A program made the position numbers and the translations under genes. The notes under the pieces were generated by a model, which saw only the letters and a list, made by a program, of their open reading frames with translations, was not told the DNA's origin and did no database searches. 64,000 nucleotides of DNA, from the NCBI GenBank assembly GCA_919902675.1, contig CAKKRH010000001.1:3-64002 (forward strand), read 5' to 3'. Positions 9,506-64,000 of the stretch are shown here, one piece after another (the first letter of the stretch is position 1; each line of letters starts with the position of its first letter). The DNA is from Omnitrophica bacterium GWA2_41_15 (GTDB lineage: Bacteria > Omnitrophota > Gorgyraeia > Gygaellales > UBA12090).

Positions 9506-12454
9506 ATGATCCGTAAAATAATTAATTTAATCTTAATCTTGGGGTTGTTGTTCCAGCAGACAGGTTTCAGCTATGCCGCCGGAGAGCTGAACATAGCCAA
9601 TTACCTTAGCCAGGCGCGTAGCGCGATAGTCACGCCGGACCAATTCCGCCCTCCGCAGTTAAGGTTTATCTCCTATGACACTAAAAGCAACGATTTCAAG
9701 CTATTTTTAGACTCCCCAGCTCCTGAACTCCTAAACTCCCAAAACCCTTTGAACTCTCCAACTCCCAAACTTAACGACTCTACCCAGGAACTCTTTAACT
9801 ACTTCCTGACCGGTCTGGCCTTACCCAATGACACCTTCTGGGTGAACCTAAGGCCGGATGCCCCGGATAATATCATAGACCCGCTTTTAGAGAAGACTGA
9901 GATCGGTAAAATCTTCTTAGAGGCCGACCTGCAGTTAAAGAAGGACACCGCAAGCTACACCTCGCCCCAGAACCCGCAAGGCAGACAATATTGGGATAAG
10001 CTGTATAAGAAGGCCGGAGAGTTGTTTGGTAGTGAGAACATCACCATCCCCACCATCACCCGGCCCTGGATAGTGCCTAATGAAGTGATTGTGAGAGAGA
10101 CCGAGGATTCGGCGTATATCTACAAAGCCACCCTCAAAGTGATGCTGGAAGAGGACTATCTAAAAAACTATCAGCAATCCAATCCAAACCACCAACCTCT
10201 AACCTCCAACTATAGTTTCTCCGGCCCCAGGATGAAAGAGTTGAATCAGTATTCCACCCAGCTGATCAAGGAAACTATTATTCCTCAACTGACCAAAGAG
10301 GTCAATTCCTCAAAGAGATACGCCAAGCTAAGGCAGGTCTATTATTCCTTAGTCCTTTCCCGCTGGTTTAAGCAGAAATACAGTCGCGGGTCTGCGGTCT
10401 CGGGTCCCCAGTCAGCAGGACAAGATACTTCTTATGTCAAGCTTATAAATTCCAGGGATTTAACTAATCTTGCTTCCCATGAGCCTTGTGATAAGCAGGC
10501 CTACTTCCAGGCCTACCAGAAGTCCTTTAAAGACGGGGAATATAATCTCCAAGAGACCCTACCCACCCCCATCGGCCAGAGTATCCGCAGTTATGTCAGC
10601 GGAGGGATAGTTGCGAGCCCTATAACTTTTGCAGGGATAAATGCGGAAGAGAATATTGGAGTAACAAAGGCATTGACTGGCCAACCTCCGGCCACTACCG
10701 CCTCGCCGCTGGATATTGACGAGATAGTAAAAAATATTGGCGATATGTTTACAGGAAGAGGACTTAGAACAGCAAACCTTCTTGGCGTGAAATATCCGGA
10801 AAAACTTTCTGAAGAAATAAAAGTACTTATTAAAGACTATTATGCCAACCCCGATGATGCTGTTAAATTTAGCAAGGCAAGTAAGGCATTGAGGGAAGTT
10901 GTTAAAGTAGAAGGATATGATCAAGAGTCTAAGGAAATAATAGAAAAAGGAATAACATGGTCGATAATCGCTACTGGCGAATTAGTGAATTATTATCAGA
11001 AAAGTATCCCTCTGGGCTTAGAACTCATTTCAAAGTTAGAGGGTACATTAGATAAAAAAATTATATTTACAACTCAAAAAGGGCGTGAAGCATATAAAGA
11101 TGAATTTGGTAATGCTCAACGAGAACTTAAAAAGTATGTGGCGGTTGAGAAGGCGGGGGGATTTCTAGAAGAAATTATGGATAGAGGGGAGGACATATAT
11201 ATTTTAAAATATAAATTTATGGAAGCAGAAGCTAAATTTTCCGCCGGCTCGCCGCTGAATGGCGAAGCGTTAGAAGTTGAATTAGTAAAATTACCAAAGA
11301 CCGAAAAACTGCTAAGCGATTTAATCAAAATTTTCTCTAAGGTGGATAAGAGCGCTCAATTGGGACCTCAAATAGCTATTTTAATAGCAGAGATGCTCAC
11401 AGAGAGTGGGGTGACTCCCTTTCCCGGTGAAAGTCCTAATGTATATTTAATGCGCGGAGCTGTTATGAAATCCGTAACCACTTTTTTTTCTAGCAAAAAA
11501 TTATACAATTTATATTCCAAGGATAGATTTTCTATAACAGAAGTCTTAGATAAGATTAAAGAAGGGCTACTGTTAGAAAAGTCGACAAATATTCCAGGGA
11601 GAAAGATATCAGAGGAAACTAAAAAGTACATCATTGCGCTCATAGATTTATATATTGAGGCAGTAGATAATGCAAAAAATGCTATTGAGAAGCAAGGAGA
11701 AACTTCCGTCGCCTCGCCACTGACATTAGAAAAAATGAAAAGTATAGTTTTTGAACAGGCGGGCATTCTTAAGGACCAATATAGTTCTTCCAATAACGAA
11801 AGAAATGAAATTGAAAATATGGTTGCAAATGTCCCGAACATGAGAACAAAAAAAGAATTGAAGGAATTTGTGCTTACTGAGATGATTTCCGGTATAAACA
11901 GTTACATAAAAAAAAGAAATTCAGAAAGCGAAGAGGAATTGCGATCAAGAAACTTTGAGGCTTATAAAGAAATCTATCGTAAAGTAATGTTATTGATTTC
12001 AGTGAAGGAAGCATTGGTATTATTAACTAAAGGATATGCTAATCATTCTGGCGCAGCCTCGCCGGCTAAAGGAGTTTCTTCGTCTCTACAGACAAAACGC
12101 GGCGGTATTGACTTTACCGATCGGGCTTTGCAGATTAAGCTGGAGCGGGTGGGGAGCTTTGCGGATTTAAAAATGATGTTGCCGGGGATAAGCAATGTGG
12201 AGGCAATTGACCTGGATAATGAGTTTAAGCAGATCCAGGCGATGGTTAGCTCTAGCATTCGTCCTTCGGATACCCGGATCCTGGAATTCGCCGCGGCCTG
12301 CTATTACCGGGGCGAGTTTGACTACAGGCTCACCCAGGTAAGCTCCTGTATCAAAGCGGCCCACCTTGCCGATGAGCTCTTGGGCCGGGAAAGCTCGCAG
12401 GCCCTGCGCCTGGCCACCATACTGCCGGACGCGCCGTATGGTGGAAGAATTTGA
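9506..12454 (+). CDS. large secreted protein of unknown function
   Basis: 982-aa ORF with a signal peptide (MIRKIINLILILGLLFQQTGFSYAAG) and GGAGGG RBS. It has low-complexity P/N/S tracts, a K/E-rich AT-rich middle and a GGIDF-containing C-terminal domain. Confidence 0.6.
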   Translation: MIRKIINLILILGLLFQQTGFSYAAGELNIANYLSQARSAIVTPDQFRPPQLRFISYDTKSNDFKLFLDSPAPELLNSQNPLNSPTPKLNDSTQELFNYFLTGLALPNDTFWVNLRPDAPDNIIDPLLEKTEIGKIFLEADLQLKKDTASYTSPQNPQGRQYWDKLYKKAGELFGSENITIPTITRPWIVPNEVIVRETEDSAYIYKATLKVMLEEDYLKNYQQSNPNHQPLTSNYSFSGPRMKELNQYSTQLIKETIIPQLTKEVNSSKRYAKLRQVYYSLVLSRWFKQKYSRGSAVSGPQSAGQDTSYVKLINSRDLTNLASHEPCDKQAYFQAYQKSFKDGEYNLQETLPTPIGQSIRSYVSGGIVASPITFAGINAEENIGVTKALTGQPPATTASPLDIDEIVKNIGDMFTGRGLRTANLLGVKYPEKLSEEIKVLIKDYYANPDDAVKFSKASKALREVVKVEGYDQESKEIIEKGITWSIIATGELVNYYQKSIPLGLELISKLEGTLDKKIIFTTQKGREAYKDEFGNAQRELKKYVAVEKAGGFLEEIMDRGEDIYILKYKFMEAEAKFSAGSPLNGEALEVELVKLPKTEKLLSDLIKIFSKVDKSAQLGPQIAILIAEMLTESGVTPFPGESPNVYLMRGAVMKSVTTFFSSKKLYNLYSKDRFSITEVLDKIKEGLLLEKSTNIPGRKISEETKKYIIALIDLYIEAVDNAKNAIEKQGETSVASPLTLEKMKSIVFEQAGILKDQYSSSNNERNEIENMVANVPNMRTKKELKEFVLTEMISGINSYIKKRNSESEEELRSRNFEAYKEIYRKVMLLISVKEALVLLTKGYANHSGAASPAKGVSSSLQTKRGGIDFTDRALQIKLERVGSFADLKMMLPGISNVEAIDLDNEFKQIQAMVSSSIRPSDTRILEFAAACYYRGEFDYRLTQVSSCIKAAHLADELLGRESSQALRLATILPDAPYGGRI

Positions 12455-26975: not shown

Positions 26976-27542
26976 ATGATCAATCCATATCTTATTTCTA
27001 CTAATCATCAGAAAGTTTTAAGCTTCTTCGTCCTTCATCCGGGCGCGTCTTTTTATGAGAGGGAAATCGCGCGTAAGAGCGGCTTGAGCCCAAGTTCAAC
27101 CCACTATGTTTTGACGCGTCTTTATCGGGCGGGCGTGATTAACCGAAATCAAAATGGCCGGATGTATTTTTATTTTGTTGATGCGACAAACCCTTATCTT
27201 AAAGAGTTTAAGGGCTTGGCTAATTTGCTTTTAATTGAGCCTTTGGTGGAAAAGTTGAAAGGATTAAGCCATAAAATAGTCCTCTTTGGCAGCTGGGCAG
27301 AGGGAAGCGATAATAAGGATAGCGATATAGATCTATTTATTGTCAGTTTTGAAAAAGAAAAGGCGCTATCAGTAATCAATAAATTCTCTTATTCCGCTAA
27401 ACTCTGTAATCGCAAGGTCCAGCCGATTATCAAGTCTCCGGAAGAGCTTTTAAGAAAAGGTAAAGAAAAAAGCGTATTCTTTGAGCAAGTAGAGAAAGGG
27501 AAAGTCCTCTGGGAAAGGGAGATTAATGACGATATCCTTTAA
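26976..27542 (+). CDS. wHTH-fused minimal nucleotidyltransferase (MNT-type antitoxin)
   Basis: N-terminal wHTH (YEREIARKSGLSPSSTHYVLTRL) followed by the GSWAEGSDNKDSDIDLFIV NTase motif. Confidence 0.7.
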   Translation: MINPYLISTNHQKVLSFFVLHPGASFYEREIARKSGLSPSSTHYVLTRLYRAGVINRNQNGRMYFYFVDATNPYLKEFKGLANLLLIEPLVEKLKGLSHKIVLFGSWAEGSDNKDSDIDLFIVSFEKEKALSVINKFSYSAKLCNRKVQPIIKSPEELLRKGKEKSVFFEQVEKGKVLWEREINDDIL

Positions 27543-33648: not shown

Positions 33649-34221
33649 ATGGAATACCGCATTGATAAAGATGGGCTGTTGAATAGGTTGAGCGCCTGGA
33701 ATGATTATCTTAAAAGAAGGGTGCGCCTAATTGCCTGCGGAGGCACCGCCCTTACTCTGCTTAATATAAAGGATTCTACTAAAGATATTGATCTGCTTGT
33801 CCCTGATATCAAGGAATACGAATATTTAGTAAAGGTTTTAAAACAATTAGGTCATAAGCCAGTCAGCGGCTGGGGTTTGAGCCGGGATGACGGATTTATC
33901 TTTGACTTATTCAGAGGCAAGGTAATCCATACTACGGAGTTATTGGATTCGCCGTTAAAGAAGGATAAGTATATCCCAATTAAGGAGTTTAGCCGTATTT
34001 ATTTAGGCGTCTTGAATTGCTATGATTTAATCATCAGTAAATTATTCAGGGCAACAGCGGTTGACCTTGAAGATTGCCTGCTTTTATTTAAAAACAGGCA
34101 TAGGGAAATAAGCCTGGACTATTTAGAGAGCCGCTTCTATGAAACTGCTTCTTATGATGTTTCTGAGGATAGGGTTATTAAAAACTGGAAGCATTTCTTG
34201 AAACTTATTAAAAAAGAGTAA
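33649..34221 (+). CDS. nucleotidyltransferase-fold protein (DUF6036-like)
   Basis: IACGGTALTLLNIKDSTKDIDLLV resembles a GG...DxD NTase-fold motif. Confidence 0.45.
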   Translation: MEYRIDKDGLLNRLSAWNDYLKRRVRLIACGGTALTLLNIKDSTKDIDLLVPDIKEYEYLVKVLKQLGHKPVSGWGLSRDDGFIFDLFRGKVIHTTELLDSPLKKDKYIPIKEFSRIYLGVLNCYDLIISKLFRATAVDLEDCLLLFKNRHREISLDYLESRFYETASYDVSEDRVIKNWKHFLKLIKKE

Positions 34222-54928: not shown

Positions 54929-55078
54929 GTAATGAAAGATTAAAAATAAATTTATAATATGCATAATTACCGTCGTTTTTGCCTAATGCCTTTATTGATA
55001 GGAAGTTACCGAATAATTAGGGCGTAATATGCGGTTATAATGGTGAGCGGGTAAAGAAACAAAAGCTTTAATTTTCTA

Positions 55079-55125
55079 TTGACAGATGAATAAAAATATT
55101 ATACAATTGAATAGTAATGCTATTC
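55079..55125 (+). promoter_or_regulatory. sigma70-like promoter plus small dyad
   Basis: TTGACA 55079-55084, 17-nt spacer, TACAAT 55102-55107. GAATAG-taatg-CTATTC dyad at 55109-55125. Confidence 0.5.
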
Positions 55126-55180
55126 AGCAGGCCAGCAGGCCGTGGTTTGGTTTCCAATAGCCAGAGCCGTTAGGAGTGTT

Positions 55181-55777
55181 ATGCTAAGCGCGATCATTTC
55201 TTCTAAAACTAAACGTAAGCTTTTAACCTTATTACTTACCAACCCTAAACGCAGATTTTATGTGAGGGAGATTTCCAGGGGCATTGAAGAAAACATCAAC
55301 TCTGTCCGGTGTGAGCTGAGGAAGCTGGCCTCTATTGGATTAGTATCTTCAGAAAAAGAGGCAAATCTATTGTATTATAAAATAAACCCGGGTTGCCCGC
55401 TTTATAAAGAGCTGAAGAATCTTATATACAAAACCGAAGCCTTCGGCCCATACCTTAAAGAAATATCAAATTTTTCTAAGGATATTCAGATCGCCTTTAT
55501 TTATGGCTCCACGGCTTATAACCAGGAGCGGGAAAAGAGCGATATTGATCTTTTTGTCCTGGGGGATACAGATGGAGAGAAACTCCATAGATATATCTTC
55601 GAACTTGAAGAGAAAATCGGTCGGGAGATCAATACTGTTTATATGACTCTTAGCGAATTTAAAGACAAAATCAAAAGAAAGAACGCGTTTTTAAAGAGAG
55701 TTCTTTCTGGAGAGAAGATATTCATAAGAGGAGATGAGGATGCTTTATCGGGAATTACTAAAGGAAAAGAAGATTAA
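55181..55777 (+). CDS. wHTH-fused minimal nucleotidyltransferase (MNT-type antitoxin), second copy
   Basis: FYVREISRGIEENINSVRCELRKL wHTH followed by the GSTAYNQEREKSDIDLFVLG NTase motif. Paralog of 26976..27542. Confidence 0.7.
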   Translation: MLSAIISSKTKRKLLTLLLTNPKRRFYVREISRGIEENINSVRCELRKLASIGLVSSEKEANLLYYKINPGCPLYKELKNLIYKTEAFGPYLKEISNFSKDIQIAFIYGSTAYNQEREKSDIDLFVLGDTDGEKLHRYIFELEEKIGREINTVYMTLSEFKDKIKRKNAFLKRVLSGEKIFIRGDEDALSGITKGKED

Positions 55778-56162
55778 AGTTCATCAAGCTTCACCTGAAG
55801 AAATTAAAGATATTATTGAAATAGCTGACAGGGATTTAAGTTTTGCTAAAGAAGCTATGGCGCATAATTGGGATTGGGCTTTTACTATTACTTATAACGC
55901 GGCTCTGAGTGCTTCACGGGCATATATGTATAAAATAGGTTATCGTCCATCGTCTGCCGAGAGCCATAAGACAGTATGGAGTTTTATGTTATTAGCTTTG
56001 CCTGAAGGTCAGCACGATCGTATCCATTTCTTTAATCATATGCGTGTCAAACGAAATAAGAATCTCTATGACCACGCAGGCCTTATCTCTGAGACAGAAG
56101 GCAAGCAGATAATTAATTCGGCTGAAAAACATATTGTGGTAATTAAAAAACTTCTCTTATAG
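55734..56162 (+). CDS. HEPN domain protein, second copy
   Basis: HEPN-like helical protein overlapping the NTase gene by 44 nt. RVKRNKNLY region. Confidence 0.65.
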   Translation: MRMLYRELLKEKKIKVHQASPEEIKDIIEIADRDLSFAKEAMAHNWDWAFTITYNAALSASRAYMYKIGYRPSSAESHKTVWSFMLLALPEGQHDRIHFFNHMRVKRNKNLYDHAGLISETEGKQIINSAEKHIVVIKKLLL

Positions 56163-56261
56163 AGTAAGCGGCCACATTTAGAGAATAGAGAGAATAGGAG
56201 AATAGGGGTCAGAGTGGTTTTATTGGCCGTCTCCTTTTCGCGTGATATATTGAGGATTTAA

Positions 56262-56855
56262 TTGTCAGTCCACGCCTTACAGAAACATTCTATATCAAAA
56301 AAAGAGATAAGCGTTTTGCCTCTCAAACATTATACCGGCTCTATCCATCTGATAGATTCGGACGCGAAGATGAGAGCGGCCGCGCGGTCTCTGGGCAGAG
56401 AGAAGGTCTTGGGTTTTGATACGGAGACCAGGCCCGCTTTTAAGAAGGGCGAATCTTATCCACCGTCTCTCATCCAGCTTGCCGCCGCGGACGGGGTATA
56501 CATATTCCAGATAAGGCGTATTAATTCTCATAAAGCGCTTGCCGGTATTTTGGCCGATCGGAATGTGCTGAAAGCCGGTATTGGAGTATCGGAGGATATA
56601 AAAAAACTGAACGATATATTGCCCTTTGAGCCGTCAGGTTTTATCGGATTGGCAGGCCTGGCGGCTAGGGCCGGAATAAAGAACGCGGGTATCCGCGGCC
56701 TGGCGGCACTGCTATTCGGTTTTAGGATATCCAAACAGACGCAGTGCTCCCGCTGGGACGCGCCGGCGCTTACGCGCGCGCAGATAGTTTACGCGGCTAC
56801 CGACGCCTGGATATGCAGAGAGATATATTTCGCCTTGTTCGAGAAAAAGGGGTAA
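56262..56855 (+). CDS. DEDD 3'-5' exonuclease domain protein (RNase D / WRN-exo-like)
   Basis: LGFDTETRP (ExoI), a NVLKAGIGVSEDIKKL (ExoII-like) region, and YAATDAW (ExoIII). Confidence 0.7.
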   Translation: MSVHALQKHSISKKEISVLPLKHYTGSIHLIDSDAKMRAAARSLGREKVLGFDTETRPAFKKGESYPPSLIQLAAADGVYIFQIRRINSHKALAGILADRNVLKAGIGVSEDIKKLNDILPFEPSGFIGLAGLAARAGIKNAGIRGLAALLFGFRISKQTQCSRWDAPALTRAQIVYAATDAWICREIYFALFEKKG

Positions 56856-56874
56856 GCCTTTGAAATCCGAAAAG

Positions 56875-56892
56875 ATTATTCTAAATATCTCC
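56875..56892 (+). repeat. 18-bp direct repeat identical to the copA 5' end (left copy)
   Basis: ATTATTCTAAATATCTCC, identical to 62932-62949. The flanks are also similar (GAAA.. before, CC.GGGA after). Confidence 0.75.
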
Positions 56893-56900
56893 TGGGAAAA

Positions 56901-57004
56901 GATAGGGTCAAACCTCAAAACTCCAAAATAGCCATTAACGCTGGAATTGGTAAGAGATTAGATAAATTGTAAGTTTGAGGTTTGACCTTATCAGTGACCC
57001 TATC
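56901..57004. other. nested inverted repeats adjacent to the left direct repeat
   Basis: GATAGGGTCA (56901-10) / TGACCCTATC (56995-57004), and GGTCAAACCTCAAA (56906-19) / TTTGAGGTTTGACC (56974-87). Confidence 0.6.
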
Positions 57005-57144
57005 AACATTCTATGAAATCCCAGACGCGAAGAATATCTATAACAATATGAGCAATAAAGAGATATTAAAAAAGAAGGTTTTTGTCCGTACTTTCGGCTG
57101 GCCAGTGGCAGGATTATAGTAATGCGATGAGGAGCTTGGCCGAG

Positions 57145-57714
57145 GCTATATTAGGCTAGAGGCGATAGATAAAAGGCTATAGGCGATAGGCAATGGGCTA
57201 TAGAAAAACCTATAGCCTCTCGCCTATAGCCTATAGCCTGGAGTGAAACTCATGGGCAAAGGGTTTGAGCAATTACAGGTTTGGCAGAAAGCGAAAGACA
57301 TTGCGGTTTTGATTTACAAGGTCACGGCTGATGGGAAAATCGCTAAGGACTTCAGCTTGCGCGATCAAATGCGGCGCTCGGCTATAAGCATAGCCAGCAA
57401 TATCGCTGAAGGCGACGAAAGAGATACAGACAAGAAATCGGTACGATTTTTCTTTATTGCAAAAGGTTCACTTGCGGAATTACGGACTCAGCTCAGGATC
57501 GCACTGGAAGTCAATTTCTTGGATAAAGATGAATTTGCCAAGATCAAACAGGATTGTTTGGAAATTGGCAAGATGTTGGGCGGATTAATAAAGCATAGAA
57601 TAGGCGATAGGCAATAGGCGATAGGACGGGAAAATCCTATAGGCTATGGCGTGATGTCTCTCGCTTTTTTTATTACCTATAGCCTATCGCCTCGCGTCTA
57701 TAGCCTAATATAGG
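57145..57714 (+). mobile_element. inverted-repeat-bounded four-helix-bundle gene module (rRNA-IVS-like)
   Basis: The left flank CTATATTAGGCTA..GGCGATAG is the reverse complement of the right flank CTATCGCC..TAGCCTAATATAG (57676-57714). ATAGGCN heptad arrays fill both flanks. Confidence 0.5.
57252..57617 (+). CDS. four-helix-bundle protein (23S rRNA intervening-sequence protein family)
   Basis: FEQLQVWQKAKDIAVLIYKV, RDQMRRSAISIASNIAEG, AKGSLAELRTQL. Confidence 0.75.
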   Translation: MGKGFEQLQVWQKAKDIAVLIYKVTADGKIAKDFSLRDQMRRSAISIASNIAEGDERDTDKKSVRFFFIAKGSLAELRTQLRIALEVNFLDKDEFAKIKQDCLEIGKMLGGLIKHRIGDRQ

Positions 57715-57780
57715 GTCGGGCGAGGCGCGGTTGTCAGTGATTGTGGTCAAAAAAATCGATGTCAATGTCAATTCAATCGA

Positions 57781-57856
57781 GGCAATAGGCGATAGGCTTT
57801 TGGCGATAGGATTAATAACCTATAGCCTATGACCTATCGCCTATTGCCTTTTTTAG
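57781..57856 (+). terminator. long heptad-built hairpin with T-run
   Basis: GGCAATAGGCGATAGG...CCTATCGCCTATTGCC (outer 16 bp perfect) followed by TTTTTT. Confidence 0.6.
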
Positions 57857-58006
57857 GCATCAATGGTCAAACTGGCTAAAATAAGCGCCCAGCGTCGGAA
57901 GACAGGCGATTTTAGGGGTGTTTTAGGGGCGTCTGGAGAGGTCAAAAATAGGCGTTTTGATGGACATCTATGGACATCATTTTGTCTACAGCGAGAGTGA
58001 TTATTC

Positions 58007-58090
58007 TTGACTCTCAGGCGTTTCATGGTAAAATGTCCACTAATTGGAAATGTCCACTAAATAGTGGACATTTAGGAGTAGTGGACATTT
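58007..58090 (+). promoter_or_regulatory. promoter plus four-copy 12-mer operator array
   Basis: TTGACT 58007-12, 16-nt spacer, TAAAAT 58029-34. AAATGTCCACTA at 58031 and 58048, with its complement TAGTGGACATTT at 58062 and 58079. Confidence 0.6.
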
Positions 58091-58093
58091 AAT

Positions 58094-58822
58094 ATGCCTT
58101 GGCTTTTCAGACAGTCAAGTAATGGATCGCATGAAGGAGTTACTACGATGAAAATACTTTCAGGAGATAAGGCGAACATAATCATTCGCGCCATGCTATC
58201 TCAACCCGATAGGAAATGGGTCGCTAGGGATTTCGAGAAAGAATTTGGCGTGGGACGCGCGCGCGCGGCAAAAGTACTATCAGAACTGCGCGCCAAGGGG
58301 TTTGTCGGAGGGGTTCGGTCTGGCAGGCTCGCGCATAGCATATTGCAAAATAAAGAAGAACTTCTTGAGGAATGGCTTAAAGTCTATAAGTTTGAGCTTA
58401 ACGAAGCCCATCTTTATTACTCAACCCGAGAGGATATTCTTCCCCGGCTAAAGGAATATTTTGCAGGGAAGAAAGATCCCAATCAATACGCCCTGACGCT
58501 TCATACCGGAGCCAATCTCATTACCAGCTACGTGAACACGCAGACAATATATTGTTACCTGCCGGTAGAGAATTTCAAGAGCGCTTCATTGGACCTGCGG
58601 CAGGTTCTTGATCTGAAGGAATTAAAAACGGGCGGCAATTTTTATTTAATAAACCCGTATTATAGAAGCGCCACTTTTTTCAATACTCAGATAATCAAAG
58701 GCTACAATGTTGTTTCGGATCTCCAGCTTTATTTGGATCTGTATCATTTCCCGCAGAGGGGCCGAGACCACGCCGAGTATTTACTTAAAACATTAAAAGA
58801 GGAAGGAAAACCAATTGCTTAA
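58094..58822 (+). CDS. wHTH protein, AbiEi-like antitoxin candidate
   Basis: wHTH region DFEKEFGVGRARAAKVLSELRAKGFV. Positioned upstream of, and overlapping, an NTase-fold gene. Confidence 0.5.
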   Translation: MPWLFRQSSNGSHEGVTTMKILSGDKANIIIRAMLSQPDRKWVARDFEKEFGVGRARAAKVLSELRAKGFVGGVRSGRLAHSILQNKEELLEEWLKVYKFELNEAHLYYSTREDILPRLKEYFAGKKDPNQYALTLHTGANLITSYVNTQTIYCYLPVENFKSASLDLRQVLDLKELKTGGNFYLINPYYRSATFFNTQIIKGYNVVSDLQLYLDLYHFPQRGRDHAEYLLKTLKEEGKPIA

Positions 58823-59606
58823 AGAATTCCCGGGAGAAAAACTCCTCATCAAAGTCATAGATGATCTGGCTGATTTTTTGCCGTATCTTGTTCTGGTAGG
58901 CGGTTGGGTGCCGTACATCTATGCCAGACATATGTGGAAAGACGTTCCCAATATGGCAGTGACTACTGGAGATATTGATTTTGGTGTCGGTGATCATGAT
59001 TTTAACGGCAAGGATACGGTTGCTTCTCGGGTGCAACGATTGGGATATGGAGAGCGCCACGTTTCAATGGATCGACCATATCCGTTCGTTCCTATTGCGA
59101 AAGACGCAACCGGTGAGACAAAAACCGAAGTTGAGTTTATAACTGACCCCAAGGTTTCCCGGAAAGTCATCAATAAAATCGTTGGCAAAGAGATCAAGAT
59201 CAATGAAATCCAGCATTTCAGTTTATTGCTTGGTTCTGTCATGCCGGTAAAAATGAACGGCAAAAGCATCCAGATACCGACAGAATCGATGTTTGTTTTT
59301 CATAAACTGTTGACGTTTGTGGATCGGGAAAATAAAGCTAAACTCAGGAAAGATCTTTATTACGTTTACTATATGATCAGATTCAGCCCGACAAAGGCAC
59401 AGCTTTGTGACGATGTGGTCGGCCTTATCAAAAAACTTAAAGAAGGCAAACAAGTCAAAGAGAATCTCAAAGAGTATTTTAGCAGTGTTGATTCAAAGGG
59501 GCCTTTATTTGTCGAACAGGAAAACGGCCCGGACGCTTATGTCGCGAATGTGAGAGAAGACGCGTTTGAGAAATTTAGCGACATTAGGCGAAGGGTTGAG
59601 GGATGA
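58815..59606 (+). CDS. nucleotidyltransferase-fold protein (GSU2403/AbiEii-like toxin candidate)
   Basis: LVLVGGWVPYIY and TGDIDFGVGD NTase motifs. 8-nt overlap with the upstream wHTH gene. Confidence 0.6.
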   Translation: MLKEFPGEKLLIKVIDDLADFLPYLVLVGGWVPYIYARHMWKDVPNMAVTTGDIDFGVGDHDFNGKDTVASRVQRLGYGERHVSMDRPYPFVPIAKDATGETKTEVEFITDPKVSRKVINKIVGKEIKINEIQHFSLLLGSVMPVKMNGKSIQIPTESMFVFHKLLTFVDRENKAKLRKDLYYVYYMIRFSPTKAQLCDDVVGLIKKLKEGKQVKENLKEYFSSVDSKGPLFVEQENGPDAYVANVREDAFEKFSDIRRRVEG

Positions 59607-59848
59607 AAACCTTCGCTATCGGCGACATCCACGGCGCCTATAAGGCGATGATGCAGTGCTTTGAGCGCTCAAAGTTCGATTATAAGAAAGACCGAACATT
59701 ACAACCAATTCATGTTTGCAATGTTTGGAATATCGATACCGGTGCTGGATGGTCAGGCAAGCTCACGATCATAGATGTTGATACAAAGGAATATTGGCAG
59801 TCGGATTTGACGCCGGACTTATACGGCGGAACGCCGGATAAATTATAA
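59603..59848 (+). pseudogene. internally deleted metallophosphoesterase (Ser/Thr phosphatase-like)
   Basis: N-terminal FAIGDIHG joins directly to C-terminal NIDTGAGWSGKLTIIDV. The GDxxDRG, GNHE and HGH blocks are absent, leaving 81 aa. Confidence 0.55.
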
Positions 59849-59884
59849 ATTGTGGCAGATTTTTTGAAATGAGGAGTATTTTTT

Positions 59885-60352
59885 ATGCCAATGATTAAAT
59901 GTACTGACGAGCAGGCTTATTTAATCGAATTATGTTTAGACACTATGTGCAGAGCCACTATGGGTCAATTAACGCATGTTATCGAATCTATGGAGCAGAT
60001 TAGGGGAAAATTATTTAAAGTGAAATGCCCGGATGGGGAGGTTAGGAGTTTTTATTCGCTTGGGACATACATTGAAGAGATGATAAAACCAATCCTTTTC
60101 CCGGAGCTGGCTTCTAACGCAAGCTACGGAGTCGGGCAAAAGGCCATTGGAAACGGGCAGGTGCTGTACGAGATGGTAAAGGTTTTGCAAAATTACAGAG
60201 CTGAAAAAGAGAATCATTCTAAGCACTCGGTTACTTGGCACAAACCTTTACATTACAGTAAAAAACCATTGATTGAGGTTATGAGCTTGCAAAACGAGAA
60301 GAAGCCGATTAAGCGGCGTGTCGCAGTTAAGGAGAAGAGCAGGAAGAAATAA
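59885..60352 (+). CDS. hypothetical protein
   Basis: 155-aa ORF with GAGGAG RBS and a basic C-terminal tail. No family recognised. Confidence 0.4.
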   Translation: MPMIKCTDEQAYLIELCLDTMCRATMGQLTHVIESMEQIRGKLFKVKCPDGEVRSFYSLGTYIEEMIKPILFPELASNASYGVGQKAIGNGQVLYEMVKVLQNYRAEKENHSKHSVTWHKPLHYSKKPLIEVMSLQNEKKPIKRRVAVKEKSRKK

Positions 60353-60401
60353 GCGGCTTTAGGCGAAACAGTTTTTTAAGCGAAGAACAGAGAAGAGAAG
60401 A

Positions 60402-60848
60402 ATGGCGAAGGAAAGAAAAATCACAGGTATAAGGTCTTGGCCGGAGGATGACAGGCCGAGAGAAAAACTCCTCAAAAAGGGCGCGGGAGCTTTGAGTAAT
60501 TCCGAGCTTCTGGCCATTCTTCTTCGCACCGGAACGCAGGGCACCAGCGCAATTGACCTCGCCCGCAAAATCTTAAAGAAATTCAGCACATTCCGCAATA
60601 TGGCCCACACCGACGCCCGGGACTGGAAAGAGTTCAAGGGTTTAGGCGGGGCCAAGATCGCCCATATTCAGGCCGCGCTTGAAATCGGGCGGCGCTATCG
60701 ACAGGACGATGTGTCCACCGGGAAGCAGAAAATCGCCTCTGCAAAAGATATTGTGGATATCGTCATGCCTCAGCTTCGGGACCTTAAATATCAAAAAATA
60801 TCAAAAGACGCTCTATATAATTCAAATATCAAAAGACGCTCTATATAA
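60402..60848 (+). pseudogene. radC: radC (UPF0758) truncated before the JAB/MPN domain
   Basis: RSWPEDDRPREKLLKKGAGALSNSELLAILLRTGTQG and HhH KGLGGAKIAHIQAALEIGRR are intact. Homology stops at MPQLRDLK (~60785), where the repeat tract begins. No HNHPSG motif is present. Confidence 0.7.
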
Positions 60849-60852
60849 TTCA
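60798..60852 (+). repeat. 28-nt tandem duplication of the left end of the 127-bp repeat
   Basis: ATATCAAAAGACGCTCTATATAATTCA at 60798-60824 and 60826-60852, with a further partial ATATCAAAA at about 60788. Confidence 0.8.
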
Positions 60853-60954
60853 TTGCGTTGCAATAGGTTGCAAAACAATTCCATGGAATACATAAAGTAT
60901 AATTGTTTTGTAATTCATTCAGCGTGATAAGGTTAGATAAAGCGTCTTGTGAGT
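60828..60954 (+). repeat. 127-bp perfect direct repeat, copy 1
   Basis: Identical base for base to 62253-62379. Internal dyads AAGACGCT/AGCGTCTT and CAAAACAATT/AATTGTTTTG. Confidence 0.9.
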
Positions 60955-60957
60955 GTA

Positions 60958-61063
60958 CGGGGTAAAGCTTCTGCCGCTCATAATGAGCAAGAGAACCTTT
61001 ACCCCGCGGCGGCTCGGACACGACAGCCGAAGGTCTTTATAAAGACCTTCGGCTGGCCGGTGG
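60958..61063 (+). repeat. hairpin element A (GGGGTAAAG stem plus 26-nt perfect palindrome)
   Basis: GGGGTAAAG (60959-67) / CTTTACCCC (60997-61005). CCGAAGGTCTTTATAAAGACCTTCGG at 61027-61052. A 51-bp core is identical to 62819-62869. Confidence 0.8.
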
Positions 61064-61176
61064 TTCCGTTTCCACAGGACTATGTTGTCTTTTCTGGAGT
61101 ACGCATATGAAGATGAGCTTAATAAGGTATCTACTTATATACCAAAAGGTTAATATAAATAGAATGGGATTAAGCT

Positions 61177-62184
61177 ATGAAAAATAAGATTACTGAAATA
61201 CCGTCAAAGGGCGAAATTATCATTTACCGGACCAAAGACAAGAAAATCCAGCTTGAAGTTAAATTGGAGCAGGAAACGGTTTGGCTTTCTCAGAAACAAA
61301 TTGCCGACTTGTTTATTAAAGATATCCGTACGATTAATGAGCATATACAAAACATATTCAAAGAAAAGGAGTTAAAGAAAAATTCAGTTATCCGGAATTT
61401 CCGGATAACTGCCGCTGATGGTAAAAGCTACGAGACAAATTTCTATAATCTCGATGTAATTATTTCAGTTGGGTACCGTATAAAATCCCAGAACGGCACA
61501 CGGTTCCGTATTTGGGCTACGAATGTACTAAGAAGGCATCTTATAGATGGCTATACATTGAATGAAAAGCGCTTAAAGGAGCAAACTCTAAAACTTCAGG
61601 CCTTGCAACGGGCAGTAAAGCTTATTGGCAGCATGAAGGATCGTAAACAACTTGAATATAAAGAGGCCATGGGATTGCTTGAAGTTATCAGCGATTATAA
61701 TTACGCACTAGGCCTCTTGGATGATTATGATTACAAGCGGCTCAAGGTGTCGCATACTTCTAAAGAAGAGAAATTCATATTAAGCCAGGAAGCCGCATTG
61801 AGGGCGGTTGAAAAGTTAAAAGAAAAAATTGGCTGCTCTGACCTTTTTGGCGTGATGCGCGATAAATCTTTTGAAAGCTCAATTTCTTCAATTTATCAGA
61901 CATTCAGTGGAAGGGACTTGTACCCAAGCGTTGAGGAGAAAGCGGCTAATCTTCTTTACTTTATTGTCAAGAACCATTCGTTTGTTGATGGTAATAAGCG
62001 GATCGCTGCCTCAATATTTTTATGGTTTTTAGGGAAAAATGGTATCTTGTATAAAGAAGATGGTTCAAAGCGCATTGCCGATAATGCTTTAGTCTCCTTG
62101 ACTTTAATAACTGCTGAAAGCAAGCCCAGCGAGCGCAACGTTATCGTTACTCTGGTTGTGAATCTGATAAACAGGAATAATTAA
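61177..62184 (+). CDS. RhuM-like N-terminal domain fused to Fic/Doc domain protein
   Basis: N-terminus ...ETVWLSQKQIADLF...NLDVIISVGYRIKS..GTRFRIWAT is RhuM-like. The C-terminal HSFVDGNKRIAA is the Fic/Doc HxFxDGNKR motif. Confidence 0.8.
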   Translation: MKNKITEIPSKGEIIIYRTKDKKIQLEVKLEQETVWLSQKQIADLFIKDIRTINEHIQNIFKEKELKKNSVIRNFRITAADGKSYETNFYNLDVIISVGYRIKSQNGTRFRIWATNVLRRHLIDGYTLNEKRLKEQTLKLQALQRAVKLIGSMKDRKQLEYKEAMGLLEVISDYNYALGLLDDYDYKRLKVSHTSKEEKFILSQEAALRAVEKLKEKIGCSDLFGVMRDKSFESSISSIYQTFSGRDLYPSVEEKAANLLYFIVKNHSFVDGNKRIAASIFLWFLGKNGILYKEDGSKRIADNALVSLTLITAESKPSERNVIVTLVVNLINRNN

Positions 62185-62252
62185 CAATAAGGACACAGTT
62201 CCAGTGTAATTATAGTTATCGTATAGATATAAAATAAAACGGCCCCAGTAAG

Positions 62253-62379
62253 ATCAAAAGACGCTCTATATAATTCATTGCGTTGCAATAGGTTGCAAAA
62301 CAATTCCATGGAATACATAAAGTATAATTGTTTTGTAATTCATTCAGCGTGATAAGGTTAGATAAAGCGTCTTGTGAGT
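62253..62379 (+). repeat. 127-bp perfect direct repeat, copy 2
   Basis: Identical to 60828-60954 and 1425 bp downstream of it. Confidence 0.9.
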
Positions 62380-62414
62380 TTCTTTTGTGAGTTAAGCGTC
62401 CTGAGGATATTTGC

Positions 62415-62669
62415 ATGACGCATCGGGCAGAGGACGCGGACCCAAATGTGCCTTGGAATTTCTGCGGACATGTCCATGAAAAATATAAGGTGAAACGATT
62501 AAGCGAGAATTCTTTGGTTGTGAATCTCTGCGTCAAGGTGTGGAATTATTATCCGGTTTCATTTGAAGAGATTGGTTCCGCTGTCTCCGCGTTCTTGAAG
62601 GAAGAAAAGAAAGCCTGTGCCCAAAGGGACAAACGGGACATGAACAGGACAAACGCGACAAAGGCGTAA
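62415..62669 (+). pseudogene. 3' fragment of a metallophosphoesterase gene
   Basis: FCGHVHEKYKV...VVNLCVKVWNYYPVSFEEI resembles the C-terminal third of calcineurin-like phosphoesterases. No N-terminal metal motifs are present. It starts just after repeat copy 2. Confidence 0.45.
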
Positions 62670-62731
62670 TTGGCTCAGATAAAAAGCTTATGAATGATTC
62701 TAACAAGGAAAGTAAAAATATATCCGAAGGC

Positions 62732-62787
62732 CAAACGTGCGGGCTGCCAAGTCCGGCTGCAAACGTGCGGGCTGCCAAGTCCGGCCG
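62732..62787 (+). repeat. 28-nt tandem direct repeat (2 units)
   Basis: CAAACGTGCGGGCTGCCAAGTCCGGCTG followed by the same unit with one T-to-C change. Confidence 0.8.
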
Positions 62788-62796
62788 CCAAGCATG

Positions 62797-62878
62797 CGGG
62801 GTAAAGCTTGCTGCTCAACCTTTACCCCGCGGCGGCTCGGACACGACAGCCGAAGGTCTTTATAAAGACTTTTGGCTG
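62797..62878 (+). repeat. hairpin element B (shorter copy of element A)
   Basis: GGGGTAAAG (62798-806) / CTTTACCCC (62820-28) with a 13-nt loop. The palindrome is degraded to ...AAAGACTTTTGG. Confidence 0.8.
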
Positions 62879-62922
62879 ACGAATGTCTGTGATTCGCCGG
62901 CAGGGGAAAATAGGATAGGTTG

Positions 62923-64000
62923 ATGGAAAGAATTATTCTAAATATCTCCGGGATGCATTGCGCTTCTTGCGCGGGGAATATTGAGGGCGCGCTGAAGAAT
63001 GCCGCAGGCGTCCAAGGTGCCCGGGTGAATTTTGCCTTGGAGAAGGCGGAGATTGAGTTTGATCCGCGGGTGTTAAGGGCCAAAGATGCCATTACCGTAA
63101 TAGAAAAGGCAGGGTATAAAGCCTTTATTCCCGAAGAAGGTATTGATCGGGAAAGGGAATCGCGGGAAAAAGAGGTCCGAAGCCTTAAAATACGTTTTAT
63201 TATTGCCGCTATTTTATCCGGAATTTTAATGTATGTGGCAATGGGGCATTGTCTGGGGTTGTGCCTGGCGCATTGTATCACCCAGAATAGCCCGCTTATC
63301 CAGTTTATCCTGGCCAGCGCCGTGCTGGCCGCGGGCGGGCAATTCTTCAGCCGGGGGCTAAGAGCGGTCTTTAAAAACCGCCAGGCCTCAATGGATACCC
63401 TGGTGGCATTAGGGGTAGGTAGCGCCTATCTTTACAGCGTATTTGTAAGCCTGGCTATTTGGAGAGGTAATGCCGCTTTCAGCTCAAATGACCTTTACTA
63501 TGAGGTGGCTGCTTTTTTGATTACCTTTATCCTCTTAGGTAAATACCTGGAGGCCATTACCAAACGCAAGACCTCTCAGGCCATTCGCAGGCTCTGGGGT
63601 CTGCGGCCAAAGACCGCCCTGGTGATCCAGCAGGGCCGGGAAATAGAGGCGCGGCTTGAGGATTTAAGGGTGGGCGATTTGATCGCGATTAAGCCCGGAG
63701 GGAGGATCCCGGTTGACGGTGAGATTATTGAAGGCTATTCCAGCGTGGATGAATCGGTGATAACCGGGGAGAGCATCCCGGTGGAAAAGAATGCCGGGGA
63801 CGCGGTGATTGCCGGATCTATCAATAAGCACGGGGCCTTTACCTTTAGGGCCCAAAAGGTAGGCCGGGAAACTACTCTCGCCCAAATCATAAAATTAGTG
63901 GAAGATGCCCAAATGTCCAAGGCCCCTATCCAGGAGCTGGCGGATAAAGTTGCCTCCATTTTTGTCCCGGTAGTCTTAGTCATTGCCTTTTTGGCCTTTT
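62923..64000 (+). CDS. copA: copper-translocating P1B-type ATPase, 3' end outside window
   Basis: Open frame from ATG 62923 to the window edge. HMA domain ILNISGMHCASCAGNIEGAL, and an actuator region DESVITGESIPVEK in frame at about 63745. Confidence 0.9.
   Translation, partial: MERIILNISGMHCASCAGNIEGALKNAAGVQGARVNFALEKAEIEFDPRVLRAKDAITVIEKAGYKAFIPEEGIDRERESREKEVRSLKIRFIIAAILSGILMYVAMGHCLGLCLAHCITQNSPLIQFILASAVLAAGGQFFSRGLRAVFKNRQASMDTLVALGVGSAYLYSVFVSLAIWRGNAAFSSNDLYYEVAAFLITFILLGKYLEAITKRKTSQAIRRLWGLRPKTALVIQQGREIEARLEDLRVGDLIAIKPGGRIPVDGEIIEGYSSVDESVITGESIPVEKNAGDAVIAGSINKHGAFTFRAQKVGRETTLAQIIKLVEDAQMSKAPIQELADKVASIFVPVVLVIAFLAF
62932..62949 (+). repeat. 18-bp direct repeat (right copy, inside copA codons 4-9)
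   Basis: ATTATTCTAAATATCTCC, identical to 56875-56892. Confidence 0.75.

Follow-up and report, generated by a model that had tools for sequence, protein, structure and literature searches.

A 6-kb island with att-like repeats in the 5' end of copA in an Omnitrophota genome from Hainich groundwater

We analysed a 64,000-nt stretch of contig CAKKRH010000001.1 (Omnitrophica bacterium GWA2_41_15, assembly GCA_919902675.1; hereafter the window), in which about 6 kb of DNA lie between a 3'-5' exonuclease gene (exo) and copA, the gene of a P1B-type Cu ATPase. Comparison of nucleotide sequences with related genomes establishes that this segment was inserted into the 5' end of copA, since its boundaries, the duplicated sequence and the origin of both flanks could be read from the alignments. 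It belongs to a known kind of insertion, the genomic islands or islets that occupy hotspots and carry att-like repeats. We give a probability of about 0.5 to the reading that a composite non-autonomous island entered native copA codons 4-9 through a single Campbell-type event in an Omnitrophota lineage of the Hainich groundwater, and that it subsequently decayed and spread. The features that define the two junctions are as follows.

56262..56855, + strand: 3'-5' exonuclease gene (DNA_pol_A_exo1, PF01612; Pfam E = 1.2e-20), the conserved left flank
56849..56892, + strand: relic of the native copA 5' end, with ribosome-binding site (RBS) motif GGGGTAAGCC, TTG at 56860 and 11 codons
56875..56892, + strand: left copy of the 18-bp direct repeat (extended 27-nt repeat at 56869-56895)
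62903..62931, + strand: insert-derived RBS (GGGGAAAATAGGATAGG), ATG 62923 and codons GAA AGA, the putative replacement copA start; alignments to relatives start at 62926
62932..62949, + strand: right copy of the 18-bp direct repeat, copA codons 4-9 (extended repeat at 62926-62952)
62923..64000, + strand: copA (P1B-type Cu ATPase), which continues beyond the window (740 aa in contig L057)

The repeat, ATTATTCTAAATATCTCC, has two matches in the window, both on the + strand, and they remain the only two when up to two mismatches are allowed. Shuffled sequences give an expectation of 0.02 matches, so that the 18-mer is not the common genomic word that would have undermined the earlier note, which had described it as bounding the segment. 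The similarity of the two copies stretches to 24 of 27 positions (56869-56895 versus 62926-62952). The right copy is in frame with ATG 62923 and encodes CopA residues 4-9, as had been claimed. With these limits the insert proper covers 56893-62931 and the island 6,057 bp. The two copies in the window are identical to each other, while orthologues differ from them at 2-4 synonymous sites, which points to duplication rather than convergence as their source. The whole arrangement is found in a long-read contig (contig_28, 2.15 Mb) and, with 100% identity, in short-read contigs that were assembled independently (81x and 99x coverage); all contigs that carry it come from Hainich groundwater metagenomes.

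We found the empty site that the earlier note had proposed to look for, that is, exo directly followed by copA, in four Omnitrophota relatives (L055, L068, L070 and L002). The exonuclease gene is 86-93% identical at the nucleotide level in relatives with copA directly downstream, and the relatives share a metal cluster encoding an RND pump, a P-type ATPase, an ArsB-like permease, a YHS protein, a DUF1573-cupredoxin protein, the exonuclease and CopA. Against L055 the window aligns without a break over 56288-56895 and again from 62926 on, so that some 27 nt of L055 serve twice. The junction of L055 and L068 reads ...GGAAGGGGTCAGCCCTTGAAATGTGAAAAGATTATTTTAAATATTTCCGGGATGCATTGC, and L070 has the same layout. 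The 18-mer itself occurs at this junction in relatives: it is exact in L034, a contig from the same aquifer with an intact copA start, and carries 2-4 synonymous differences in L055, L068, L070 and L023 (2-3 sites in the orthologues that are 84-86% identical, four in the closer L070). In L002, where synteny stops shortly downstream of copA, exo is followed by a copA with an in-frame palindromic insert of 36 nt (10633-10668; TCCCGAC...GTCGGGA) immediately 3' of the TTG.

At the left junction, native sequence runs up to the repeat. The exonuclease gene stops with TAA at 56853-56855 and the TTG follows at 56860, opening an open reading frame (ORF) of 56860-56931 that translates as MKSEKIILNISWEKIGSNLKTPK* and ends in insert DNA. 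The proposal that this frame mimics the CopA N-terminus is borne out by a profile of native copA starts, which matches the window at 56847-56894 (profile positions 2-49) with E = 5e-11, and by alignment of the relic with L023 (6687-6729) and with L055. The left copy is thus preceded by a native copA RBS and start, TTG-KSEK where relatives have TTG-KCEK, and its 5' flank GGGGTAAGCCTTTGAAATCCGAAAAG corresponds to the native GGGGTCAGCCCTTGAAATGTGAAAAG.

At the right junction the order of native and foreign DNA is reversed. Here copA starts at ATG 62923 (MERIILNISGMHC...), and nothing in the empty sites corresponds to the sequence in front of the right copy, ...GGGGAAAATAGGATAGGTTG ATG GAA AGA; alignments to L023, L055, L068 and L070 begin at 62926. 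The 3' flank GGGATGCATTGC is native copA sequence, and the profile of native starts matches 62926-62961 (positions 24-59), overlapping the left match at positions 24-49. The earlier note had supposed that the element supplies a replacement start, which agrees with an insert-borne RBS and ATG-GAA-AGA in frame with a copA of intact length; copA is presumably expressed from the new start at ATG 62923. The 740-aa product carries HMA (PF00403), E1-E2_ATPase (PF00122) and Hydrolase (PF00702) domains, and its assignment as CopA is backed by an N-terminal HMA domain with GMxCxxC, the sequence reading MERIILNISGMHCASC. The gene appears to be the resident orthologue and not an import: it is 84-86% identical to the copA genes of L023, L055 and L068 at the nucleotide level, uniformly, and against L023 copA (84% nt, 87% aa) the identity is even along the gene with no mosaic 5' part. 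A foreign origin, raised by the 65% amino acid identity to L002, was dropped on these grounds. The sequence GGGGTCAG..CTTGA upstream of copA was considered as a dispersed repeat and is not one within the window.

Conservative integration of a circular DNA (att x att) would be expected to leave such junctions, namely identical repeat copies, repeat edges at which native sequence gives way cleanly to foreign sequence, and an in-frame replacement start. In the favoured reading, 18 bp mimicking the copA 5' end would have lain in the junction of the circle, behind an RBS, an ATG and two codons that the circle brought along. The crossover is placed inside the repeat by the native sequence on the outer side of both copies. 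It would have yielded an attL with the native RBS, TTG, KSEK and the 18-mer, now a dead relic beside the exonuclease gene, and an attR in which the insert-borne start is fused to the remainder of copA, so that the copper pump stays intact. The predicted attP junction would be GGTTGATGGAAAGA-18mer-TGGGAAAAGATAGGG, that is, GGATAGGTTGATGGAAAGA-ATTATTCTAAATATCTCC-TGGGAAAAGATAGGGTC, and the restored attB would read GGGGTAAGCCTTTGAAATCCGAAAAG-18mer-GGGATGCATTGC. A recombinase, like the circular intermediate a postulate of this reading, would have acted in trans or would have been lost since. The island would then have decayed, and its allele would have spread via homologous recombination within the exonuclease and copA genes on either side of it.

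For the last step there is a direct indication in L069, a 2.4-kb contig at 2x coverage from a different well, where island and junction show 98-100% identity to the window although the backbone is 9-14% divergent. Its cupredoxin gene is 86% identical to that of the window and its exo differs by about 11% up to approximately 56700; beyond this point the divergence falls to 2-3%, the upstream part of the relic is identical at 26/26 positions, four lineage-specific substitutions included, and the left 187 nt of the island are 98% identical. The drop of divergence within exo indicates that the island allele moved by homologous recombination between backbones about 10% diverged, with the breakpoint inside exo as far as one low-coverage contig shows. 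The left junction of the window reads GAAAAGAT-TATTCTAAATATCTCCTGG-GAAAAGAT-AGGG, with GAAAAGAT on either side of 19 nt, and L069 is without exactly the 27 nt (ATTATTCTAAATATCTCCTGGGAAAAG) between the two GAAAAGAT repeats, so that the 18-mer is gone. This looks like a slippage deletion, which is as expected if the relic is dispensable.

Several observations weigh against site-specific integration. No recombinase was detected among the island ORFs (all compared with Pfam, most with NCBIfam), as the earlier note had already supposed, nor did the search of the wider contig that it recommended retrieve one: no recombinase or transposase was detected in 30 further ORFs of the window, and a crude scan of 69.6 kb for box-II and serine recombinase motifs gave nothing. 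By inspection, the 18-mer is without the obvious dyad symmetry typical of tyrosine-recombinase core sites. An attP junction was absent from the matches of the 18-mer in IMG/VR and a metagenome collection, with the limit that the window's own long-read assembly (L001) was not matched and relevant samples may not have been covered; the metagenome scan gave 28 matches, L034 being the sole related one, and viral contigs scanned for the 18-mer and for the cores of three island elements described below (LH, R-A, R-B) gave chance matches or none. The left junction has a periodicity of 27 nt over 1.3 units, which a simple att model does not predict. The other occupants of the slot between exo and copA (L023-L025 and L034) have different junctions, without the 18-mer repeat. 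In L002, the RBS and first codons of copA are present a second time upstream of exo, as a perfect copy over 28/29 nt (9915-9943, profile positions 4-32; cf. 10619-10709); fill-in or duplication would account for this more readily than mimicry by an attP. Of the earlier claim of site-specific integration into the copA 5' end, the insertion and the replacement start hence hold, whereas the action of a site-specific recombinase, for which no gene was found, remains an inference.

Among the alternatives, a duplication that preceded the insertion is unlikely but answers some of these points. Slippage would first have produced an in-frame tandem duplication of 27 nt (GAAAAGATTATTCTAAATATCTCCGGG, 9 codons), and foreign DNA would later have entered the second unit, perhaps duplicating 8 bp of the target (GAAAAGAT), followed by accretion of more DNA; the 18-mer would then be a remnant of the tandem and not an att core. 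The periodicity of the left junction, the shortening of L069 by exactly one unit and the position of GAAAGAAT at the right junction, directly before TATTC, all speak for this course of events, as do the varied insertions taken up by the slot and the mosaic make-up of the island with its nested repeat insertions. Yet two rare events would have had to strike the same few bases independently, 3 later substitutions are needed, no microhomology for slippage is apparent at the unit boundaries by inspection, and no allele with a bare tandem duplication was found, L055, L068, L070, L023 and L034 all having a single unit.

It is seriously doubtful that the arrangement arose from one-sided homologous recombination, in which a linear donor fragment with the island and its own copA (with an MER... 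start) would have undergone homologous exchange inside copA at one end and been joined illegitimately at resident codon 11 at the other, leaving the repeat as mere similarity of two copA alleles. That the island allele does move by homologous recombination (the L069 breakpoint in exo), the unequal length of the N-termini (MKSEK versus MER) and the end of L002 synteny just past copA would fit such an import. However, the identity of copA to L023 is uniform from the 18-mer on, with no more-divergent 5' tract, and a donor with an unalignable start should not match at 18/18 positions when orthologues differ at 2-3 sites (four in L070); besides, the proposal merely shifts the origin of the arrangement to another genome.

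Serial use of the site is a rather speculative possibility, which we hold to be quite unlikely. The copA 5' end of this Omnitrophota clade would serve as a reusable landing site to which DNA is added stepwise, in an integron-like manner with no linked integrase and with LH-bounded cassettes; with each event, some 26-29 nt from the beginning of copA may be duplicated, a functional start being restored and a relic staying behind on the left side. Two cases fit: the window island (positions 24-49), and the exo duplicate of L002 (positions 4-32) together with a trace in the window, ATAGGGGTCAG, at the place matching the L002 duplicate (56200-56212). The duplication flanking exo in L002 suggests an older event of the same type.

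Transposition by a DDE-type enzyme, with a target duplication of 16-17 or 27-28 bp and later loss of transposase and ends, is improbable. Elements of the IS1202 family generate target duplications of 5-6, 16-17 or 27-28 bp (bioRxiv 10.1101/2022.12.17.520857); like them, the island has inserted DNA flanked by direct repeats, and a repeat of 18 perfect or 27 positions with 3 mismatches comes near the two longer classes, while the 28/29-nt duplication at exo in L002 could be counted in favour as well. In contrast to that family, the island has no terminal inverted repeats at either candidate boundary, its cargo is not IS-like and no transposase was present in the tested ORFs or in the 69.6-kb motif scan; an in-frame RBS and ATG at the insert edge would moreover take luck plus selection. 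A chance repeat or an assembly artefact, for which nothing speaks beyond the shortness of the repeat, can be dismissed, as 0.02 matches are expected, the structure is identical in three independent assemblies (long-read and 81-99x short-read contigs) and alignments to four empty-site relatives break exactly at the repeat boundaries.

Regarding known systems, the closest parallel is offered by the integrative and conjugative elements (ICEs) SXT/R391, which target the 5' end of prfC via short, nearly identical sequences in element and chromosome (PMC2791158). The copA island likewise lies within the 5' coding part of a gene that is conserved on the chromosome. In the work of Hochhut & Waldor 1999, the SXT core is said to be about 17 bp, with the element reportedly giving prfC a new promoter and 5' codons and leaving the gene functional. 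The differences are considerable: the ICEs measure about 100 kb against 6 kb here, and the copA island, in an Omnitrophota host, is without Int/Xis, conjugation genes or a detectable attP form, shows decay, and seems to be passed on through homologous recombination in its flanks. What one expects of an integrative element is present as regards the empty site, direct repeats equal to the target with native flanks, and a target that seems to have been kept functional; a recombinase gene is missing. No tRNA gene was detected in a scan of the whole window, and the att site is thus not of the tRNA type. Islets without integrase and hotspots of defence or toxin-antitoxin (TA) genes also resemble the locus in their fixed slot between conserved genes, TA- and Fic-type cargo, alternative cargo by strain (here none, an AAA_14/DUF4143 ATPase gene, a TA module or this island) and transfer by flank recombination. 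Ordinary hotspot turnover lacks, however, the intragenic position, the clean 18-bp duplication and the replacement start codon of the copA insertion.

Three other types of element were considered and rejected by inspection. An integron cassette array has in common with the island only the co-directional genes, there being no integrase and no R''/R' boxes (RYYYAAC/GTTRRRY) in the LH and R hairpins. A Xer/dif module is not indicated, as the 18-mer has no 28-bp dyad of 11-6-11 and the R-B palindrome (61024-61055) is internal and not at the boundaries; we also take this palindrome to be unlike the dif arms. A transposon with terminal inverted repeats was set aside, no inverted repeats existing between the two ends of the island. 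The interest of the locus lies in a comparator-backed case, read from alignments, of an island within the 5' coding part of a housekeeping gene for metal efflux, where the insert would provide a new translation start, and this in a phylum without cultured genetics. A new mechanism would be at hand only if serial addition with regeneration of the start were true. The structured repeat families LH and R and the AbiEi_2/NTP_transf_8/phosphoesterase module may be worth describing in their own right.

The slot between exo and copA can be regarded as a small hotspot, with at least five occupancy states in one aquifer. In L023, L024 and L025, an AAA_14/DUF4143 ATPase gene lies between exo and the copA RBS, with no duplication. 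This gene is solitary (5343-6677 in L023, 10679-12012 in L025) and has a frameshifted copy downstream of copA in L055 (6237-7329); it appears to move around the locus. In turn, L034 holds a distantly related TA module together with 72 nt of R-A, the join lying 25 nt before the TTG of copA. Its TA part shares 99.7% identity with the msrAB locus of L071. This contig may represent the right-hand junction in the L069 genome, or else be a rearranged or chimeric contig of low coverage.

The segment had been described as holding TA-like modules, truncated genes, repeats and a Fic/Doc gene, a content that the Pfam and NCBIfam scans corroborated. All island genes have the same orientation, and the island has no DNA in common with the rest of the window. 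Its features are given below.

56898..57004, + strand: LH hairpin element at the left end of the insert, an inverted repeat of about 95-110 nt (fold z = -3.95)
57074..57108, + strand: degenerate third copy of the R-B end motif (copies 69-77% identical)
57146..57860, + strand: region of the four-helix-bundle gene (gene 57243-57617; 23S rRNA intervening-sequence protein, PF05635, E = 2.4e-36; TIGR02436)
58094..58822, + strand: AbiEi_2-type antitoxin/regulator homologue (PF09952, 29.3 bits versus a cut-off of 21)
58815..59606, + strand: NTP_transf_8 nucleotidyltransferase, partner of the AbiEi_2 gene (PF12281, E = 2.6e-9)
59603..59848, + strand: 81-aa metallophosphoesterase remnant, third gene of the module (N-terminal 31 aa match ApaH/PrpE models)
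59885..60352, + strand: 155-aa ORF with no family match above cut-off (exact protein only in the same context)
60402..60848, + strand: RadC N-terminal stub (UPF0758_N only; Pfam E = 1.5e-29), cut by R copy 1
60796..61063, + strand: R element copy 1 (28-nt tandem duplication, hairpin A, hairpin B1, 32-nt perfect palindrome; z = -9.7)
61177..62184, + strand: RhuM-N/Fic-DOC protein gene (PF13310, E = 1.6e-24; PF02661, E = 1.7e-11)
62249..62886, + strand: R element copy 2 (part A 62249-62379, part B 62801-62886, split by 421 nt)

By its gene content the island looks decayed, with an internally deleted phosphoesterase gene, the RadC stub, whose NCBIfam match covers profile positions 1-112 of 212, and repeat insertions. 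The nested inverted repeats that had been noticed next to the left copy (56901-57004) correspond to LH, with 26-nt arms that are 85% complementary and a fold z of -3.95. A similarity of the LH left arm to the copA start was not significant (E = 11), and the profile of native copA starts disclosed no further relic starts within the island. The four-helix-bundle gene is flanked by heptad-repeat arrays (AGGCGAT / CCTATAG) that pair into a long stem (z = -8.7); gene (bAvd-like) and stem resemble an rRNA intervening sequence, yet they stand outside any rRNA gene. The R element comprises about 270 nt with three strong hairpins (z = -9.7), the 32-nt perfect palindrome being CAGCCGAAGGTCTTTATAAAGACCTTCGGCTG, and has no match in Rfam, as is true of 55000-64000 altogether. 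The two R copies enclose the RhuM-Fic/DOC gene. In copy 1, the 28-nt tandem duplication creates a promoter-like TTCAAA-17-TATAAT site. The 421-nt split of copy 2 contains an 84-aa ORF (62415-62669), which by eye resembles a phosphoesterase C-terminus and has no family match, and a 28-nt unit, GCCAAACGTGCGGGCTGCCAAGTCCGGCC, repeated 2.5 times in tandem at 62730-62800.

The AbiEi_2 gene is preceded by a 29-nt palindrome at 58031-58090 and overlaps the downstream NTP_transf_8 gene, homologues of which are named GSU2403 family in one source. This overlap of an AbiEi_2-domain gene with a nucleotidyltransferase gene recalls the AbiE type IV TA systems; the partner here, however, is NTP_transf_8 (PF12281) and not AbiEii (PF08843), and intact relatives of the module have three genes including a metallophosphoesterase, of which the third is reduced to the 81-aa remnant in the island. 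The pair is thus predicted to work like a TA pair without being a canonical AbiE member. The trio AbiEi_2/NTP_transf_8/Metallophos is a conserved module in the Omnitrophota-type contigs L078-L087 (e.g., L078 7325-9502), where an intact Metallophos gene of 235 aa takes the equivalent position. There the trio belongs to a larger defence-like island with DUF6088, DUF6577, AbiEii, AEP-TOTE helicase and RecQ.

Parts of the island recur elsewhere. In L071-L073, two LH copies in direct orientation and 3,850 nt apart (1373-1482 and 5223-5332 in L071, 87% identity) bracket AbiEi_2, NTP_transf_8, a phosphoesterase stub and R-A beside msrAB, and LH abuts msrAB, which ends in ...GSNLKTPK*, the LH-encoded tail that the relic ORF of the window also has. 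LH may accordingly mark the end of a mobile unit. Part A of R is 98% conserved in other contigs (L071 3137-3274; L034 1450-1523), always beside a phosphoesterase gene fragment.

Two further variable slots were observed around exo and copA. The one from the cupredoxin gene to exo (window 55142-56162, L002 8819-9868) contains a wHTH-nucleotidyltransferase/HEPN pair in the window and a DUF1016/YhcG PDDEXK nuclease in L002, and is empty in L023 and L055. The other, downstream of copA, has an ORF of 1,444 aa with no Pfam match (L057 16491-20792, past the window end), and in the empty-site L055 DUF3047 and others followed by the shared nuo operon. Nucleotidyltransferase-type TA-like genes are also found elsewhere in the window, at 26976-27542 and 33649-34221 (wHTH+NTP_transf_2; DUF6036), and it seems that this genome is rich in such modules.

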